The position numbers were made by a program, and so were the translations under genes. From an uncultured Gammaproteobacteria bacterium (lineage in GTDB: Bacteria; Patescibacteriota; Microgenomatia; UBA1406), in the NCBI GenBank assembly GCA_964414145.1, contig CAYPVH010000004.1, positions 10,849-74,848 on the forward strand: a stretch of DNA of 64,000 bases, in the 5' to 3' direction. Positions 17,256 to 37,392 of the stretch are shown here, piece after piece; positions within the stretch are counted from its first letter, which is position 1, and each line of letters opens with the position of its first letter. The notes below the pieces were generated by a model. The model worked only from the letters and a program-made list of their open reading frames with translations. It was not told where the DNA came from and searched no databases.

Positions 17256-17908
17256 ATCTGCTCTTGTAGCCGTTTTAGGTTTTGAATAATAACCACTCGC
17301 CGCTTTTGAGTATGGCCCAAGATTCCCATATTTTGCAGCTTTTTAAGATCGAAGCTAACCGTTTCGCGAATCATACCGGTAAAGCTGGCAATGTCTTCGT
17401 GAGTTAAGGGCACGTCTAGTACAACTGAGCCGTCTTTTTGTTCTTTACCAAACCGACTAGCCATTAAGTTAATGAAAGAGGCAATTTTTTGCCTGGCCGA
17501 GTCGTACATTAGGCTTTCCATAACCAAAAGCAAGTTGTCTACGCCCTTGGCAAAATCGGCGTTGAGAGAATCTAATACATTGGGGTTATTTTTAATAAAT
17601 TCTACTACCTTTGCCTTTTCTTCTTTTTGAACCGTTAATGGGCTTTGAGCGGTGTAAAAAAACCTGTTTTTAACACTGTGCATGGTGAAAACCAGAGGTA
17701 AAATGCTACCGGGCCCATAAAGGCTAACAGACCTTTCGCGGCCTTCGGAATTAACACTATACTGGCGAACATAACCGCTTTTAACATAATAAATGTTAGT
17801 TACAGTTTTATTAGCTTCGATTAAGTTTTCGCCCCTTTTTAACTTGATTTGTGGCTTATTTTCAAAAAGTGATTCTATAGTTTGGTTAGATTGATTGTTA
17901 TTATTCAT
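17252..17908 (-). CDS. Crp/Fnr family transcriptional regulator
   Basis: A cNMP-binding-like beta-roll N-terminal half plus a C-terminal HTH (THEDIASFTGMIRETVSFDLKKLQNMGIL). Its 3' end overlaps metK by 4 nt. Confidence 0.7.
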   Translation of the reverse strand: MNNNNQSNQTIESLFENKPQIKLKRGENLIEANKTVTNIYYVKSGYVRQYSVNSEGRERSVSLYGPGSILPLVFTMHSVKNRFFYTAQSPLTVQKEEKAKVVEFIKNNPNVLDSLNADFAKGVDNLLLVMESLMYDSARQKIASFINLMASRFGKEQKDGSVVLDVPLTHEDIASFTGMIRETVSFDLKKLQNMGILGHTQKRRVVIIQNLKRLQEQI

Positions 17909-17989
17909 AGACTAAACATAGTAACATAAATGGCATACAGTTGTCCAGATAGAATTGTTAGACTGGTCACATTATTTAATAAAATTAAG

Positions 17990-18656
17990 AAAACCTAGTA
18001 GGAATCTAGGAATTTGGGATATAGGAATTTAGGAATATAAGAATAAATTCCAATAACCAAATACCAATTTCCAAACAAATCACAAAATACAAAATACAAA
18101 CAATAACAGGAATATATGAATATAAGAATTTAAGAATATAAATAAAAGCACGAAATCCAAATATCGAAATCCGAAATAATATCAAATAATCAATATCAAA
18201 TTATAAAACAGAACTCATAATTCATAATTCATAATCCGTAATACGTAATAGATAAATAGACTATGTGTCATGTTGAATCGTCGATTGAGGCGATGAAACA
18301 TCCCATGGGATTCTTCGTTACTCTCAGAATGACATGTGGAAAAAAAATAGAAAAATTGCTCTATTGTTTCATTGCTTCATTGTTCCCGCCTCTAACGGCG
18401 GGTGAATAGAGTGTCATCTTGAGCGAATGCAAAAGTTCCCATAGGATTCTTCACTTGCGTTCAGGATGACGGATAAAATAACCAATGACCAATTACCAAT
18501 TGACCAGATAATTACCAATTTTCAATAATCAAGGTAACAAGTACGAATTGAATGCTTAAATTTTTGTTTTGTTTGTTGTTTGAAATTTGTTTGACCTCCG
18601 ATTCGGAGGGTTTGGAAATTGTTTTTTTGGATCTTGGGATTTTATTTACCATCTTA
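17990..18656. repeat. noncoding modular low-complexity repeat tract A (family 1)
   Basis: Contains modules shared with 20800-21440, 25310-25390, 37020-37331 and lepA 21671-21740. For example, a 43-nt identical block at 18166-18208 equals 21049-21091. Also holds two imperfect palindromic elements (18260-18350, 18411-18471). Confidence 0.85.
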
Positions 18657-19229
18657 TTATTTATTCCCCCACTGACGGCTGGGGAGTTTGAATAGGTTTT
18701 CACGGAAAGAAAGCTTTTTAACATGCAAAAACCATTCCTGGAGTAATTTTAAAATAATGGCTATTGCTACAAATATGTAAAGATATGTTCCTTGAATAGC
18801 AAAACCGAGAAAATTTACGTAAGAACCCAAAACAAGAAGAATAAAGATGTTTTCGAATAGATTGGGGAAAAGAAATAAGTAAAGGCGGTTTTGGGTATAG
18901 GCAAAAAAAATTGTACCAACGGTACGAAGAAGAAAGAGTGACAAAAATATTAAGAACAGATGGGGAAAATTAATAGTAACAAAGACTAATATTAGGGTGT
19001 ACCAAAAATAGTCTATGGCCTTGTCTACCAGTTCGTATGTATTTTGGCTAAAAGTTTGATTACAGGCAAAATCGGCGTCGAAAGTATCTAGGAAAACAGA
19101 AAAAAATGTTGCTAAGAGCGGATTGGTAAAGACCAGAACAGCAAATATAATTCTGGCTAAAAGAACTAAAAAATAAAAACAATAATGAAACAAGTGCTTA
19201 CTGTTTAGAATTTTATAAAGTAAGTACAT
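18657..19229 (-). CDS. hypothetical integral membrane protein
   Basis: 190 aa with 5-6 hydrophobic spans and no recognisable motif. The C-terminal codons run into repeat tract A, so the 3' end is uncertain. Confidence 0.4.
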   Translation of the reverse strand: MYLLYKILNSKHLFHYCFYFLVLLARIIFAVLVFTNPLLATFFSVFLDTFDADFACNQTFSQNTYELVDKAIDYFWYTLILVFVTINFPHLFLIFLSLFLLRTVGTIFFAYTQNRLYLFLFPNLFENIFILLVLGSYVNFLGFAIQGTYLYIFVAIAIILKLLQEWFLHVKKLSFRENLFKLPSRQWGNK

Positions 19230-20786: not shown

Positions 20787-20799
20787 CAATTTTTAAATT

Positions 20800-21440
20800 G
20801 CTAGAAAAAACAAATCACAAATACCAATTTCCAAACCTTCCGAATCGGAGTGCAAACAAATCACAAATACCAAAAAGCATACTTAAAAAAAATTGCTACA
20901 TTGCTAAATTGTTAAACTGCCAGAAGAAAATAACAAGATCCAAGTAACAATTTCCAAACAAGTTCCAACCAACAAAATACAAACAAAGATAAGAATATAC
21001 TTCATTATCAATAACCAATAACCAATTGACCAAGTAAATCCGAATATTGAAATCCGAAATAATATCAAATAATCAATATCAAATTATAAAAAAGTACTTA
21101 TAATTCATAATCCGTAATTCGTAATAGATAAATAGAAAAATTGTTCCATTGCTTCATTGTTCTAATTAAAGTACAAGAGTACTATAGTACAGAAGTACTT
21201 TAGTAATATCAGCTTTTTATTTATTAACTAAAAACTTTAAATTCTAAACTTTCAGTGATGGGATCCTTCTCCGCCAGATGGCGGATCAATTACCAATTGA
21301 CCAAATAATCTCGAATTATCAATGTCAAATATTAAGTTAACAATAACACTATAACACTTTTATACTACTACACTTTATTTATTCACTACTTTATCAATTT
21401 ACAAATTTACTAAGTTACCAGCTTACTAACTTACCAATTT
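20800..21440. repeat. noncoding modular low-complexity repeat tract B (family 1)
   Basis: Colinear with tract A: aaatccgaa.. module at 21036-21063, cataattc..cgtaatagataaatag at 21099-21135, and aaaaattg..cattgcttcattgttc at 21136-21163. Also carries the ccaattaccaattgaccaa module and the ccgaatcgg hairpin module (20837-20852). Confidence 0.85.
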
Positions 21441-21455
21441 AAGTTGGATTTATCG

Positions 21456-21461
21456 TATAAT
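21456..21461 (+). promoter_or_regulatory. TATAAT -10 box 6 nt upstream of the lepA ATG (candidate leaderless transcript)
   Basis: cgTATAATacctagATG. Confidence 0.35.
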
Positions 21462-21467
21462 ACCTAG

Positions 21468-23270
21468 ATGAAAGATAGCTTGATTCGCAATTTTGCCATA
21501 ATTGCCCACATTGATCATGGTAAGTCTACCCTTGCCGATAGATTAATGGAAATAACCGGTCTGGTAAAAAAGGGTGACCACGCCGAACAATTACTAGATA
21601 CCAACCCTATTTCACGTGAGCGAGGTATAACGATTAAACTGGCACCAGTAACTATGAAATACAAATTATCAAATCCGAATATCGAAATCCGAAACAACAA
21701 AAAATCGGAAATCCATAATTCGCAATCCGTAATTCGTAATCAAGATTCAGAATACATTCTGAATCTTGTTGATACTCCCGGACATGTTGATTTTTCGTAT
21801 GAGGTTGAAAGGACTTTAGCCTGTGTTGAAGGTGTAGTATTATTGGTAGACGCTACTCAAGGCATTCAGGCCCAAACAATTGCCCATGCTTATAAAGCTT
21901 TGGAAATGAATCTAAAGATAATACCGGTAATAAATAAAATTGACCGCCCCGAAGCTGAGGTAGAAAAATGTGTAGCCGAGCTTTCGGATTTTTTAGGGGT
22001 TGCAGAAAAAGAAGTTTATAAAATATCGGCAAAAACGGGCGCTGGGGTTGAAGAATTACTGAGGGGGGTAATTGAAAAAATTCCCGGGCCGTTAATAAAC
22101 CCGGACACTAACACGAAGGCGCTAATATTTGATTCGTATTACGACCCTCATAAAGGGGTTATTGCCTTTGTACGCGTATTTGATAACAAAATTGAAAAAG
22201 GTGACCAACTGGAACTATATGCTTCCAAAACCAAATTTGAATCACTAGACGTTGGCATATTTAAGCTAAACCTGGAAATTAAAAGTGAAATTGGTTCGGG
22301 GCAGATCGGCTACGTTGTGACCAATTTAAAACGAATTCATTTGGTTAGGGTTGGTGATACGATTATTAACAACAACAAAACTACTCCCCTGCCCGGTTAT
22401 AAAAAGATTAATCCGGTGGTTCATGCCCACATATTTACAACTGACGCTGCCGACTACCCAAACTTGGAAAAGTCTTTGGAAAAGCTATATTTAAACGACG
22501 CTTCACTTGAATTTGAACCAATCTATTCCCAAACATTAGGACCAGGATTAAGGGTAGGATTTTTAGGACTGCTACATGCCGACGTAGTTCGCGAAAGGTT
22601 GGAACGGGAATTTGGCCAAAGTTTGGTGTTAACCCCCTCAAGAGTAGATTTCAAGATTATTAACAATGAATACTGGGAACCATATGCCAAAGTTAATATT
22701 ATTACACCAACTACCGAGTTGAGCAATGTGTTGAAATTGTGCCAAAGTTACAGAGCGGTTTTATTGTCTACCAATAATGTTAGTTTGGGCAGTCAGGTAA
22801 TGCTTACATATGAATTCCCCATGTCGGAATTGATGAGTAATTTTTATGATAAGTTGAAAAGCGTTTCTTCCGGGTATGCTAGTTTGGATTGGGAGTACAT
22901 TGAGCACCGAAGGGTAAACGCAGAACGGTTGGAAATTATGATTAACAACGACGTTGTTGAAGAGTTTTCGGAAATAGTTGTAGCAGAACGCGCCGATACA
23001 AGGGCAAGGACCATTGTAGACAAGCTAAAAGAAATAATTCCCAGACAAATGTTTGAGGTTAGAATACAGGCCAGGTATAAAGGTAGAATTTTAGCCAGTA
23101 ACAGAGTTGCTCCTTTTAGAAAAGATGTAACGGCAAAGTTATATGGTGGTGACCGATCGCGTAAAGACAAGCTCTTGAAAAAACAAAAGAAGGGTAAAAA
23201 ATTAATGAAGCAGATTGGCAAGATAGAAATACCCAAGGAATCTTTTATAAAACTTTTCAAATCCAACTAA
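21468..23270 (+). CDS. lepA: elongation factor 4 (LepA) carrying a repeat-derived insertion in the G domain
   Basis: G1 AHIDHGKST, G2 RERGITIK, G3 DTPGHVDF, G4 NKID, and the C-terminal LepA-specific tail (KLLKKQKKGKKLMKQIGKIEIP). See findings for the insert at 21666-21745. Confidence 0.95.
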   Translation: MKDSLIRNFAIIAHIDHGKSTLADRLMEITGLVKKGDHAEQLLDTNPISRERGITIKLAPVTMKYKLSNPNIEIRNNKKSEIHNSQSVIRNQDSEYILNLVDTPGHVDFSYEVERTLACVEGVVLLVDATQGIQAQTIAHAYKALEMNLKIIPVINKIDRPEAEVEKCVAELSDFLGVAEKEVYKISAKTGAGVEELLRGVIEKIPGPLINPDTNTKALIFDSYYDPHKGVIAFVRVFDNKIEKGDQLELYASKTKFESLDVGIFKLNLEIKSEIGSGQIGYVVTNLKRIHLVRVGDTIINNNKTTPLPGYKKINPVVHAHIFTTDAADYPNLEKSLEKLYLNDASLEFEPIYSQTLGPGLRVGFLGLLHADVVRERLEREFGQSLVLTPSRVDFKIINNEYWEPYAKVNIITPTTELSNVLKLCQSYRAVLLSTNNVSLGSQVMLTYEFPMSELMSNFYDKLKSVSSGYASLDWEYIEHRRVNAERLEIMINNDVVEEFSEIVVAERADTRARTIVDKLKEIIPRQMFEVRIQARYKGRILASNRVAPFRKDVTAKLYGGDRSRKDKLLKKQKKGKKLMKQIGKIEIPKESFIKLFKSN

Positions 23271-25261: not shown

Positions 25262-25912
25262 GTTAAGAGTTAAGAGTTAAGAGTTAGGTGATAATTAAAA
25301 GAGAGATATATTCGAAATCCGAAATAATATAAGAGTGCCAAAACCCAAAAAACAATTTCCAAACAAATCACAAACTACAAAAAACAAACAAAGATAAGAA
25401 TTTTGGAATATAGGATAATTTAAAATTAAAAATCAAAAATTAAAAATTTGAAGTAAAAAGTAACAACTAAGAATTTAAGAATATAAGACAAGAGTTAGGA
25501 GAAAAGAGTTAAGATAAGGTGAAAATAAACAGAAATCAATTTTCTACTTTCTTTTTTCTATTACTAATCTCCAATTTCTAGAAACTAATTTCTATTTATT
25601 AACTATAACACCATAATACTTTAATATCTTCACACTTTACATACTGGATTGACTAATGTATTTTGTCTAATATATCTTGTCTATTGAATAATGTATATTG
25701 TCTATTGAATAGTGTATATTGTCTATTGAATAGTGAATATTGTATATTGATTATTGTCTCTTGTATTCTGGATATTGACTAATGGATTTTGTCTACTGGA
25801 TACTGGATAATTCATACTGACTAATGTATATTGTCTAATGTATATTGTCTAATGTATATTGTCTAATGTATATTGTCTAATGTCTACTGTATATTGTATA
25901 TTGACTAATGAA
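25259..25912. repeat. noncoding repeat tract C (7-mer, 21-mer and 14-mer tandem arrays plus family-1 fragments)
   Basis: gttaaga x3-4 at 25259-25288. The 21-mer tgtctattgaata(a/g)tg(t/a)atat x3 spans 25678-25740. The 14-mer ctaatgtatattgt has 4 perfect copies plus 1 degenerate copy at 25821-25890. Family-1 fragments lie at 25310-25390. Confidence 0.9.
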
Positions 25913-25914
25913 TT

Positions 25915-33092: not shown

Positions 33093-33099
33093 AGGTAAA

Positions 33100-33450
33100 T
33101 TGTTAAAATCAATATTTATTAGACAGTATCCAATAGACACTAGACAGTATCCAATAGACACTAGACATTATTCAAAATACATTATTCATTAAGCTATATA
33201 TAATATTAATAGGACAACATTCTTCACAATAGAAACAAAACAGAATCTAGATCAAAAAAGTATTTTGAATATTAATTATTAACATTTACTATTTTGTTTT
33301 TGTGACTTTTCTGCTTTACTTTACTATGTATTTAAGCCATTGGATATTGGATAATGAATGATAGATAATAATTGCTACTGTATCTTGTCCACTGAATTCT
33401 GTCTTTTTTAATACTGGATATTGTATAATGAATAATAGCTATTGATTATT
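33100..33450. repeat. noncoding repeat tract D (family 2, inverted relative to tract C)
   Basis: The 21-mer tagacagtatccaatagacac x2 (33120-33161) is the reverse complement of the tgtctattg(a/g)a.. units of tract C. Also ctggatattg/ggataatgaat words at 33340-33440. Confidence 0.8.
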
Positions 33451-33452
33451 AA

Positions 33453-36307: not shown

Positions 36308-36395
36308 GCCAGAGTGGCGGAATTGGCATACGCGCAGGACTTAAAATCCTGTGGCCCTTTGGGTCGTATGGGTTCGAGTCCCATCTCTGGCACCA
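36308..36395 (+). tRNA. tRNA-Leu (anticodon UAA), class II, CCA encoded
   Basis: GCCAGAG/CTCTGGC acceptor, CAGGA-CTTAAAA-TCCTG anticodon arm, a long variable arm, and ATGGG-TTCGAGT-CCCAT T arm. Confidence 0.9.
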
Positions 36396-36611
36396 GCCTT
36401 CGCTTAAGCTTCGGCCGGCAAGGCACGTTTATAGGTGGGATTAATTGAGTCTCGCCCCTCATAGTCCGTAGGACGACGTGGGGTCCCATCTCTGGCACCA
36501 GCCTTCGCTTAAGCTTCGGCCGGCAAGGCACGTTTATAGGTGGGATTAATTGAGTCTCGCCCCTCAAAGTCCACCGGTTGGCGGATGACGTGGGGTCCCA
36601 TCTCTGGCACA
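36396..36611 (+). repeat. two tandem ~105/110-nt units, each ending in a copy of the tRNA-Leu 3' end
   Basis: Unit 1 is 36396-36500 and unit 2 is 36501-36610. Their first 66 nt are identical. gtcccatctctggcacca occurs at 36378-36395 and 36483-36500, and its first 16 nt recur at 36595-36610. Confidence 0.9.
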
Positions 36612-36875: not shown

Positions 36876-36992
36876 GTTCCAATCGCACAGTTTTCTAGAT
36901 AGATAGGATCCGTGCGAGTTCCCCGATACGCTTCGCTTTATCGGGACTAACTCAGAATAAACCTCACTTCGTATCGGTAACTCTGAGTTGAG

Positions 36993-37011
36993 CAAGTCTC
37001 GCCATCCCGAC
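36993..37011 (+). repeat. duplicated tRNA-Pro 3' end fragment
   Basis: caagtctcgccatcccgac at 36855-36873 (inside the tRNA) recurs at 36993-37011. Confidence 0.85.
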
Positions 37012-37019
37012 ACATAAAA

Positions 37020-37331
37020 AAATTCCAAATCTCAAATATCAATTTCCAAGCCCTCCGAATCGGAGGGCAAACAAATTACAAATACCAAAAAACAAATAAG
37101 AAGTAAATTTTTTCATGGCTAAGATACATGTCATGATGACAGGAGTGAATTATCAAGAATCAATTACCAATTGACCAATTAAGCAAATAAATCCGAAATC
37201 CGAATATCGAAACTCGAAACAATATCAAAGCACCAAAATCCAAAAAATTCACTTTGTCGGCCTGCTGGCGGACTTCGAGGGGCAGGTAAAATCAAAATAA
37301 ATTCCGAATAACAAACCTAGATACAAATACT
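37020..37331. repeat. noncoding modular repeat tract E (family 1), bracketed by a perfect 39-nt direct repeat
   Basis: Modules: caatttccaag-ccctccgaatcggaggg-caaacaaattacaaataccaaaaaa (37040-37091), caattaccaattgaccaa (37161-37178), and aaatccgaaatccgaatatcgaaa (37189-37212). The 39-nt repeat sits at 36912-36950 and 37332-37370. Confidence 0.85.
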
Positions 37332-37392
37332 GTGCGAGTTCCCCGATACGCTTCGCTTTATCGGGACTAATTCTGTCTTCTTGCTGAATTAA

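Follow-up and report, generated by a model that had tools for sequence, protein, structure and literature searches.

The window considered here, the whole stretch of 64,000 nt that was analysed, is a segment of a ~30% GC bacterial chromosome in which one long intergenic tract, tract A, carries 91 nt that a related tract, tract B, lacks. The core of this extra segment (18267-18333; copy 1) and a second copy downstream of it (18413-18470; copy 2) are shown below to be gene-less doublets of Ssn-related hairpin motifs. In the explanation that best accounts for the data, and which we hold with good confidence, these doublets are gene-less relatives of hairpin-GIY-YIG-hairpin units present in other genomes. 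We infer that the host belongs to the Patescibacteria, in the neighbourhood of Microgenomates/Roizmanbacteria. This kind of element was first described in 2025 (Chenal et al. 2025, Nat Commun, PMC11893778), and the copies in the window are further members.

Tract A (17909-18656) is flanked by a Crp/Fnr gene and a 190-amino-acid (aa) open reading frame (ORF), both on the minus strand, and tract B (20787-21467) is bounded by the genes for pyruvate kinase and LepA. In a pairwise alignment of the tracts, two flanking modules of tract A matched tract B with ~92% identity; within the window, these modules were confined to the two tracts. The 91 nt between them were present in tract A only, and tract B ran unbroken across 21135/21136. 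The alignment and the sequences therefore uphold the original prediction of a filled site in A and a contiguous junction in B. The sequence AAATAG closes both the 91-nt segment and the left flank; including one further A, the microhomology at the junction is 7 nt. The alignment also contained several other small A/B indels, of 7 and 8 nt. The modules of the site and the hairpin copies in the window are listed below, with matches to R1, a covariance model described further on.

18152-18259, plus strand: left flank module, consisting of heptamer-periodic AT-rich repeats; counterpart in tract B at 21035-21135.
18260-18350, no strand assigned: tract-A extra segment, in which the 67-nt hairpin doublet has ACTATGT (7 nt) before it and ATGTGGAAAAAAAATAG (17 nt) after it.
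18267-18302, plus strand: left unit of copy 1, GTCAT-GT-TGA-ATCGTCGATTGAGGCGAT-GAA-AC-ATC, with the GT/AC stem intact and an inner hairpin of its own; R1 match at 18264-18305 (plus strand; 27.6 bits, E = 8e-6).
18303-18308, no strand assigned: doublet centre CCATGG, which joins the inverted units and is the commonest spacer of the family.
18309-18333, minus strand: right unit of copy 1, GTCAT-TC-TGA-GAGTAAC-GAA-GA-ATC, with the TC/GA stem intact; R1 match at 18306-18336 (minus strand; 39.8 bits, E = 1.8e-9), the top match of the window.
18351-18386, plus strand: right flank module, an ATTGnTTC array of 8-nt period with one octamer more in A; counterpart in tract B at 21136-21163.
18413-18470, no strand assigned: copy 2 doublet, older and partly decayed, with GAA changed to AAA and ATC to TTC in the left unit, CCATAGG at the centre and one stem mismatch in the right unit.
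21255-21296, minus strand: tract-B relic of one unit, comprising ATGGGATCCTTC (21258-21269), the inner hairpin TCCGCCAGATGGCGGA and TCA; the GTCAT end has decayed.
37130-37154, plus strand: possible solitary degenerate unit, GTCAT-GA-TGA-CAGGAGT-GAA-TT-ATC, which fits a loose regular expression for the unit and is followed after 6 nt by a CAATTACCAATTGACCA module.

Two inverted hairpin units of ~25-36 nt around CCATGG make up the core of the extra segment, in the arrangement [GTCAT-xx-TGA-(inner hairpin)-GAA-x'x'-ATC]-CCATGG-[reverse unit]. As a result of this inversion, each DNA strand starts with one GTCAT unit. Copy 1 had been described as an imperfect long hairpin. According to its minimum-energy fold as single-stranded DNA (ssDNA), it instead forms two separate unit hairpins on both strands, as the covariation of the family predicts. 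All 34 family-conserved positions and both covarying stems are intact in copy 1. Copy 2, which the original prediction had correctly recognized as a relative of copy 1, matched R1 in each of its halves (18410-18441, plus strand, 26.7 bits, E = 1.5e-5; 18442-18473, minus strand, 36.4 bits, E = 2e-8). Its arms are so alike that it adopts the fold of a single long hairpin. All four units of the two copies read GTCAT...(A/T)TC, with a stem that begins at AT, and the pattern that defines copies 1 and 2 has an expectation of 0.00 occurrences in shuffles. Common flanks of the two copies (AATAGA...GGAWAAAATA), spotted by eye, received no support from alignment.

The doublets occur well beyond the window. 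One scan of a collection of species-representative genomes with the pattern GTCAT..TGA...CCCATRGGAT...TCAGRATGAC yielded 18 doublet loci in more than ten metagenome-assembled genomes (MAGs); the source genome was not among the matches. The hosts included Gamma- and Alphaproteobacteria, Firmicutes, Tissierellia, Saccharimonadales, Komeilibacteria and other Patescibacteria MAGs. The canonical doublet has the form [GTCAT-xx-CTGA-(GC hairpin, e.g. GCGAAGC)-GAA-x'x'-ATC]-CCATGG-[inverted unit]. The spacer was 6 nt long in 13 of 35 doublets, 12 of which had CCATGG. Across 41 units, 95.5% of the cells at the xx/x'x' and first inner-stem pairs were paired, 36 of them having changed on both sides; none of 500 shuffles was as good, and 19-49% of the cells were paired in slid controls. 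This pattern of compensatory change shows that the unit stem is maintained as a real hairpin.

We then ran model R1, built from 36 foreign units only, unfiltered over the window. It matched exactly four units in the 64 kb, with E values of 1.8e-9 to 1.5e-5, and these are the two halves each of copies 1 and 2. Beyond the four half-units, R1 had no match in the window below E = 2.6. These data confirm that copies 1 and 2 belong to a widespread family of dispersed hairpins.

Elsewhere, gene-less doublets occupy short intergenic gaps in many phyla, including insertions into gaps of ~70 nt between genes. Two loci of one MAG (L008 and L015) carry doublets that are identical at 58 of 58 positions in unrelated flanks, and another MAG has near-identical doublets at no fewer than three loci (L009, L019 and L023). 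We take these repeats and the insertions between genes as signs that the family has been copied. The boundaries of the element are well defined, with T as the base before GTCAT in 27 of 32 doublets and A as the base after ATGAC in 30 of 32. Collections of plasmids and viral contigs yielded no doublets, and a literature search for the literal hairpin sequence returned only irrelevant primer matches.

Other remains of the family are present in the window. The tract-B relic is positionally homologous to copy 2 and immediately precedes CAATTACCAATTGACCA. It was recognized by a 12-mer search (3 matches versus 0.04 expected), by alignment and by its fold, and had no match to model R1 in the window. 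Tract B, which had been considered empty, thus lacks the 91-nt segment at the junction and contains a decayed unit of the same family at ~21255-21296. A stub reported at 37128-37145 fits the loose unit pattern at 37130-37154, in the same position relative to a CAATTACCAATTGACCA module as copy 2 and the tract-B relic, but gave no covariance-model match at E <= 10. Three CAATTACCAATTGACCA modules of the window are perfect (18490-18506, 21287-21303 and 37161-37177), and each of them follows a GTCAT-hairpin doublet, relic or stub at a distance of 0-20 nt. This arrangement suggests that a composite module of CAATTACCAATTGACCA and a hairpin copy was copied as a unit.

The expectation that GTCATCCTGAGCG... 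hairpins adjoin small GIY-YIG genes was tested on loci of other genomes. At locus L024, the upstream unit ends 2 nt before the ATG of a 101-aa ORF that matches the Pfam family GIY-YIG (PF01541; 1e-17), and the TGA stop of the ORF lies within a second unit, followed by an inverted unit. Proteins of this type have at least 8000 homologues with 60-79% identity across phyla, and many of the annotated C-termini run into hairpins (e.g. ...CHPERSEGS, ...LRSE). By sequence, the only PDB relative was a remote match to the UPF0213 structure 1ZG2. A metagenome scan with an alignment of L024-type proteins yielded 80 loci, in which hairpins were sought within 150 nt of the gene. Of the 80 loci, 53 had a GTCAT-led hairpin upstream of the gene, 52 had one downstream, and 43 had both. 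Upstream units were mainly on the plus (gene) strand and downstream units mainly on the minus strand, that is, inverted. Units of the window's kind flanked the gene in 58 of the 80 loci, and the TGA..GAA variant occurred in 57 of the 80. In a Patescibacteria MAG (L115), the GIY-YIG gene lies between two complete doublets, and the four units flanking it scored 15.7-29.3 bits, as compared with 39.8 bits for the right unit of copy 1. In other genomes, then, a GIY-YIG gene for a single-domain protein of ~100 aa is bracketed by the same units, single or as doublets and inverted relative to each other. With its gene taken out, such a hairpin-gene-hairpin unit would look like the doublet. The gene associated with these hairpins is thus a ~100-aa nuclease of Ssn type, in place of the TnpA(REP)/IS200-like partner that had been envisaged. 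In viral contigs, relatives of the GIY-YIG protein amounted to one weak locus only.

Two further observations concern the Ssn-type genes. The ORFs (L026-L105, P0001-P0120) often use the hairpins as their own signals: the ATG lies 2-30 nt past the upstream unit, and the stop is often the TGA within GTCATCCTGA, with annotated ends such as SS*, CHPERSEGS and LRSE. Around an unrelated ssn gene (L116-L120, ~2574-2620), strains of one species differ by a 47-nt indel past the end of a HAD hydrolase gene, in a palindrome rich in GC (GTAGGGGCGGCTATCAGCCGCCC...). The palindrome proved to be unrelated and is not a GTCAT hairpin.

According to Chenal et al. (2025; PMC11893778), ssnA, whose product is a 94-aa single-domain GIY-YIG nuclease, is flanked by the Neisseria NTS (CGTCATTCCCGCGMAVGCGGGAATCYRG), a hairpin that overlaps the dRS3 repeat, and by related motifs named "Ssn-related motifs" (SRM). 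SsnA binds the hairpin as ssDNA only and on one strand only, and the cut is upstream of the hairpin. The same ssDNA-only, one-strand property is reported there for the Neisseria and Wolbachia homologues, with no RNA binding. Among the loci described above, homologues with 50-60% identity are flanked by NTS of Neisseria type or nearly so: L055 (GTCATTCCCGCGAAAGCGGGAATCCAG) fits the consensus exactly, and L047 and L063 carry close variants. Because NTS-type hairpins adjoin these homologues, the partner protein family appears to be the same as the Ssn family of that article, which corresponds to CDD cd10448.

The elements resemble the NTS/SRM in their frame, (C/T)GTCAT + stem...stem' + ATC (the Neisseria NTS being CGTCATTCCCGCG-MAV-GCGGGAATC); in being hairpins of 20-50 nt oriented by a 5' GTC lead; in their position on both sides of ~95-100-aa single-domain GIY-YIG genes, in an arrangement like that of an insertion sequence (IS); and in their spread through the intergenic DNA of many phyla. 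They differ in that the stem of the window variant contains a conserved TGA/GAA internal mismatch pair and a variable inner hairpin, in that gene-less inverted doublets around CCATGG are not described in the passages of that article consulted, and in that the window lacks an ssn gene and the host is a Patescibacteria bacterium. The REPIN/RAYT system (Bertels & Rainey 2011, PMC3116915) offers a further parallel: its unit is an inverted doublet of short hairpins that is non-autonomous, intergenic and without target-site duplication (TSD), and its single-copy partner gene is flanked by the same hairpins. By contrast, the partner here is a GIY-YIG nuclease (PF01541) rather than a Y1/HUH transposase, the lead is GTCAT rather than a GTAG-type tetranucleotide of REP sequences, and mobility driven by the nuclease is conjectural. 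With miniature inverted-repeat transposable elements (MITEs), such as Correia of Neisseria and Nezha of cyanobacteria, the doublets share short, non-coding sequences with inverted ends that are scattered between genes. They also share the look of an internal deletion, their ends being common to hairpin-GIY-YIG-hairpin units in other genomes. Unlike MITEs, the family has no TSD, its ends are self-folding hairpins rather than simple terminal inverted repeats (TIRs), and its partner is not a DDE transposase.

The direct repeat AAATAG had been interpreted as a 6-nt TSD, which would make copy 1 a classic MITE: a DDE-like transposase would have inserted a TIR element of 91 or 85 nt and generated the duplication. 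The repeat does border the extra segment, and the element does have inverted ends. However, the AAATAG repeats are separated from the canonical GTCAT...ATGAC ends by 7 nt and 11-17 nt, since the 91-nt indel contains, besides the 67-nt doublet, 7 nt to its left and 17 nt to its right; they therefore do not abut the conserved termini. Tabulating the flanks of other copies, as had been suggested, revealed no duplication at offsets 0-6 among 32 doublets in other genomes, and copy 2 likewise had none. The tracts themselves are periodic, with a lag-7 autocorrelation of 0.43-0.58 versus 0.28 in coding DNA, and 91 equals 13x7. For random 91-nt segments of the tracts, the probability of a junction homology of at least 6 nt was 0.026. 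AAATAG is marginal evidence, equally compatible with a slippage deletion; it is probably not a TSD and is most simply taken as a by-product of the heptamer-periodic context, not as the footprint of a transposase. Since the linked gene family also encodes a GIY-YIG nuclease and not a DDE transposase, we regard insertion as a classic MITE as highly improbable. What stands of the earlier MITE/REP-like reading is a dispersed, non-autonomous palindromic repeat composed of two inverted hairpins; its classic TSD signature does not. A structured RNA or regulatory hairpin (small RNA, terminator or mRNA-stabilizing element) selected as RNA would account for the covarying unit stems, and RNA of the plus strand, aided by G-U pairs, folds better than shuffles (z = -2.6 and -3.5). 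Yet both flanking genes are on the minus strand, on which the fold of the RNA does not stand out (z = -0.04 and -1.9), and no terminator-like T-run follows the hairpins on either strand. An intrinsic terminator was rejected at both doublets, copy 1 being followed on the plus strand by an A-run rather than a T-run. An Rfam scan of the window detected only four tRNAs at gathering score, and nothing credible at E <= 10 in 17900-18700. The covariation is explained by the GIY-YIG association together with the ssDNA-only activity reported for the nuclease, and selection as RNA is accordingly very doubtful.

Whether tract A gained the 91 nt or tract B lost them bears on the history of copy 1; the element family is the same in either case. 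In the reverse polarity, the module CGTAATAGATAAATAG/AAAAATTG...CATTGCTTCATTGTTC once held the doublet and its flanks, and B lost exactly 91 nt between the AAATAG repeats by slippage or microhomology. The 7-nt microhomology at the junction fits such a loss, as do the 24 nt of the indel that lie outside the canonical element, the several further A/B indels of 7 and 8 nt, and the length itself, which as 13x7 preserves the register of 7-nt periodic tracts in which slippage is expected. Against it, copy 1 is undecayed: its flanking modules have diverged by ~8%, and an element as old as these flanks would be expected to carry ~2.7 changes by our own estimate (P ~0.07), as compared with none at 34 conserved positions. 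Decay is visible in the older members of the family in the same mosaic, which are copy 2 and the tract-B relic and may include the 37130-37154 stub, and L008/L015 provide independent signs of copy gain in the family elsewhere. Copy 1 thus seems to be either recent or constrained, which we count in support of a gain. Overall, a gain of the 91 nt in tract A is somewhat favoured and a loss in tract B is unlikely; the remaining probability falls to a complex recombination. The nearest relative (L106/L107, 67% LepA identity) has the same gene order with spacers of 14-114 nt and no hairpin units. As it lacks the tracts, this genome cannot polarize the indel, and a metagenome scan based on pyruvate kinase for orthologous tracts found no relatives.

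Several results weigh against the identification of the copies as Ssn-related doublets, or against their mobility. The extra 24 nt of the indel mean that a single clean insertion of a doublet is insufficient. Insertion polymorphism, which had been proposed as a check, was not seen in three metagenome contigs from three samples that span the site; all were filled and 99.9-100% identical. No GIY-YIG gene was found in the 64-kb window by tblastn, so an active partner in the host is putative; this absence also agrees with the earlier description of the element as non-autonomous. Two Ssn proteins, present on 15-18 contigs each, always had one genomic context per protein across samples, and the ssn gene looks single-copy and stable, like a RAYT gene and unlike a hopping IS. 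The article PMC11893778 remarks on the resemblance of the NTS-ssnA-NTS arrangement to an IS and on the parallel with REP/RAYT, with mobility not shown. Finally, the SRM expression given there, HGTCWYN(0-2)YYVSBRHN(0-5)WNVSBRGN(0-2)RNCYNB, had 0 matches in the window and matched 1 of the 80 GIY-YIG loci; canonical units of the TGA..GAA variant fail it as well.

For the Ssn-related doublets, we propose the following mechanism and history. The cognate Ssn nuclease would bind the hairpin on the strand that reads GTCAT, as single-stranded DNA only, and its cut would fall a few nt 5' of the hairpin, by extension from Chenal et al. (2025). Because each GTCAT hairpin would be cut on its 5' side, a doublet would be cut just outside both ends, once per strand. 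The outcome would be copying or excision through ssDNA of the REPIN/RAYT type, without TSD. As all perfect CAATTACCAATTGACCA modules are near older copies, an early doublet may have joined a repeated mosaic module and propagated with it; its remains would be copy 2 and the tract-B relic, perhaps together with the 37130 stub, all of which have CAATTACCAATTGACCA downstream of them. Copy 1 most likely reached tract A later.

The tracts that house these copies are unusual in themselves. The long intergenic tracts of the window (17909-18656, 20787-21467, 25262-25914, 33093-33452 and 36876-37392) are mosaics of degenerate 7-nt, and in places 8-nt, tandem repeats. Mosaic intergenic tracts in which a few modules, including hairpin repeats, are reshuffled are also known as NIMEs in Neisseria and BIMEs in E. 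coli; unlike in NIMEs, the modules here are degenerate 7-8-nt tandem arrays and not RS units of 50-150 bp. In the closest available relative (GCA_002305675.1; L107), the spacer between pyk and lepA is 14 nt versus 681 nt in the window, with synteny otherwise conserved. As the spacers are short in this relative, the tracts are a lineage-specific expansion. The lepA gene (21468-23270, plus strand) contains an in-frame 84-nt insertion in the G domain (21663-21746; 28 aa, KLSNPNIEIRNNKKSEIHNSQSVIRNQD) that the LepA of the nearest relative lacks. The DNA of this insertion consists of heptamer modules of the intergenic tracts (aaatccgaatatcgaaatccgaaa ... ccataattcgcaatccgtaattcgtaat), and 84 equals both 12x7 and 28x3; repeat DNA has thus entered an essential gene with the frame kept. 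Other repeats are unrelated to the GTCAT hairpins or distinct from them. A short GC-hairpin module, TTTCCAAnCCCTCCGAATCGGAGGGCAAACAAATCACAAATACCAA, unrelated to them, is present in three tracts (20822-20870 and 37040-37090 on the plus strand, 18585-18625 in reverse). Another hairpin repeat, gtgcgagttccccgatacgcttcgctttatcgggactaa, brackets tract 36876-37392 with two nearly identical copies (36910-36950 and 37332-37372). Directly downstream of a tRNA-Leu gene (36308-36395), a unit of ~100 nt (gccttcgcttaagcttcggccggcaaggcacgtttataggtgggattaattgagtctcgcccctca...gtggggtcccatctctggcac) is duplicated in tandem at 36396-36610, with a GC content of 0.48, richer than the surroundings.

With these results, what looked like an orphan MITE-like palindrome gains a name and a partner protein: the common GTCATCCTGAGCGAAGCGAAGGATC-type hairpins can be assigned to the Ssn nuclease system. 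It is from such hairpins that the spurious peptides "VILSEAKD" and "FASLRMT", among others, arise. Because the published SRM pattern misses the very common TGA..GAA variant, the prevalence of SRM and Ssn is probably underestimated. In the host, a Patescibacteria bacterium whose chromosome is otherwise compact, the element marks one of the constituents of mosaic intergenic tracts of unusual size. The REPIN-like plan of the doublet, its sharp ends and the lack of TSD provide circumstantial support for Ssn-hairpin units being, or having been, mobile. By analogy with RAYT/REPIN, it is possible, if tentative, that the Ssn GIY-YIG nuclease and its hairpins constitute a third independent system of domesticated nuclease plus self-copying hairpin doublet, in which CCATGG doublets would be replicated via ssDNA in trans by a single-copy nuclease without TSD, and of which copy 1 would be a recent event in a bacterium of the candidate phyla radiation. 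If this is true, the ~100-aa GIY-YIG domain would be the smallest known mobilizing enzyme of a prokaryotic repeat family.

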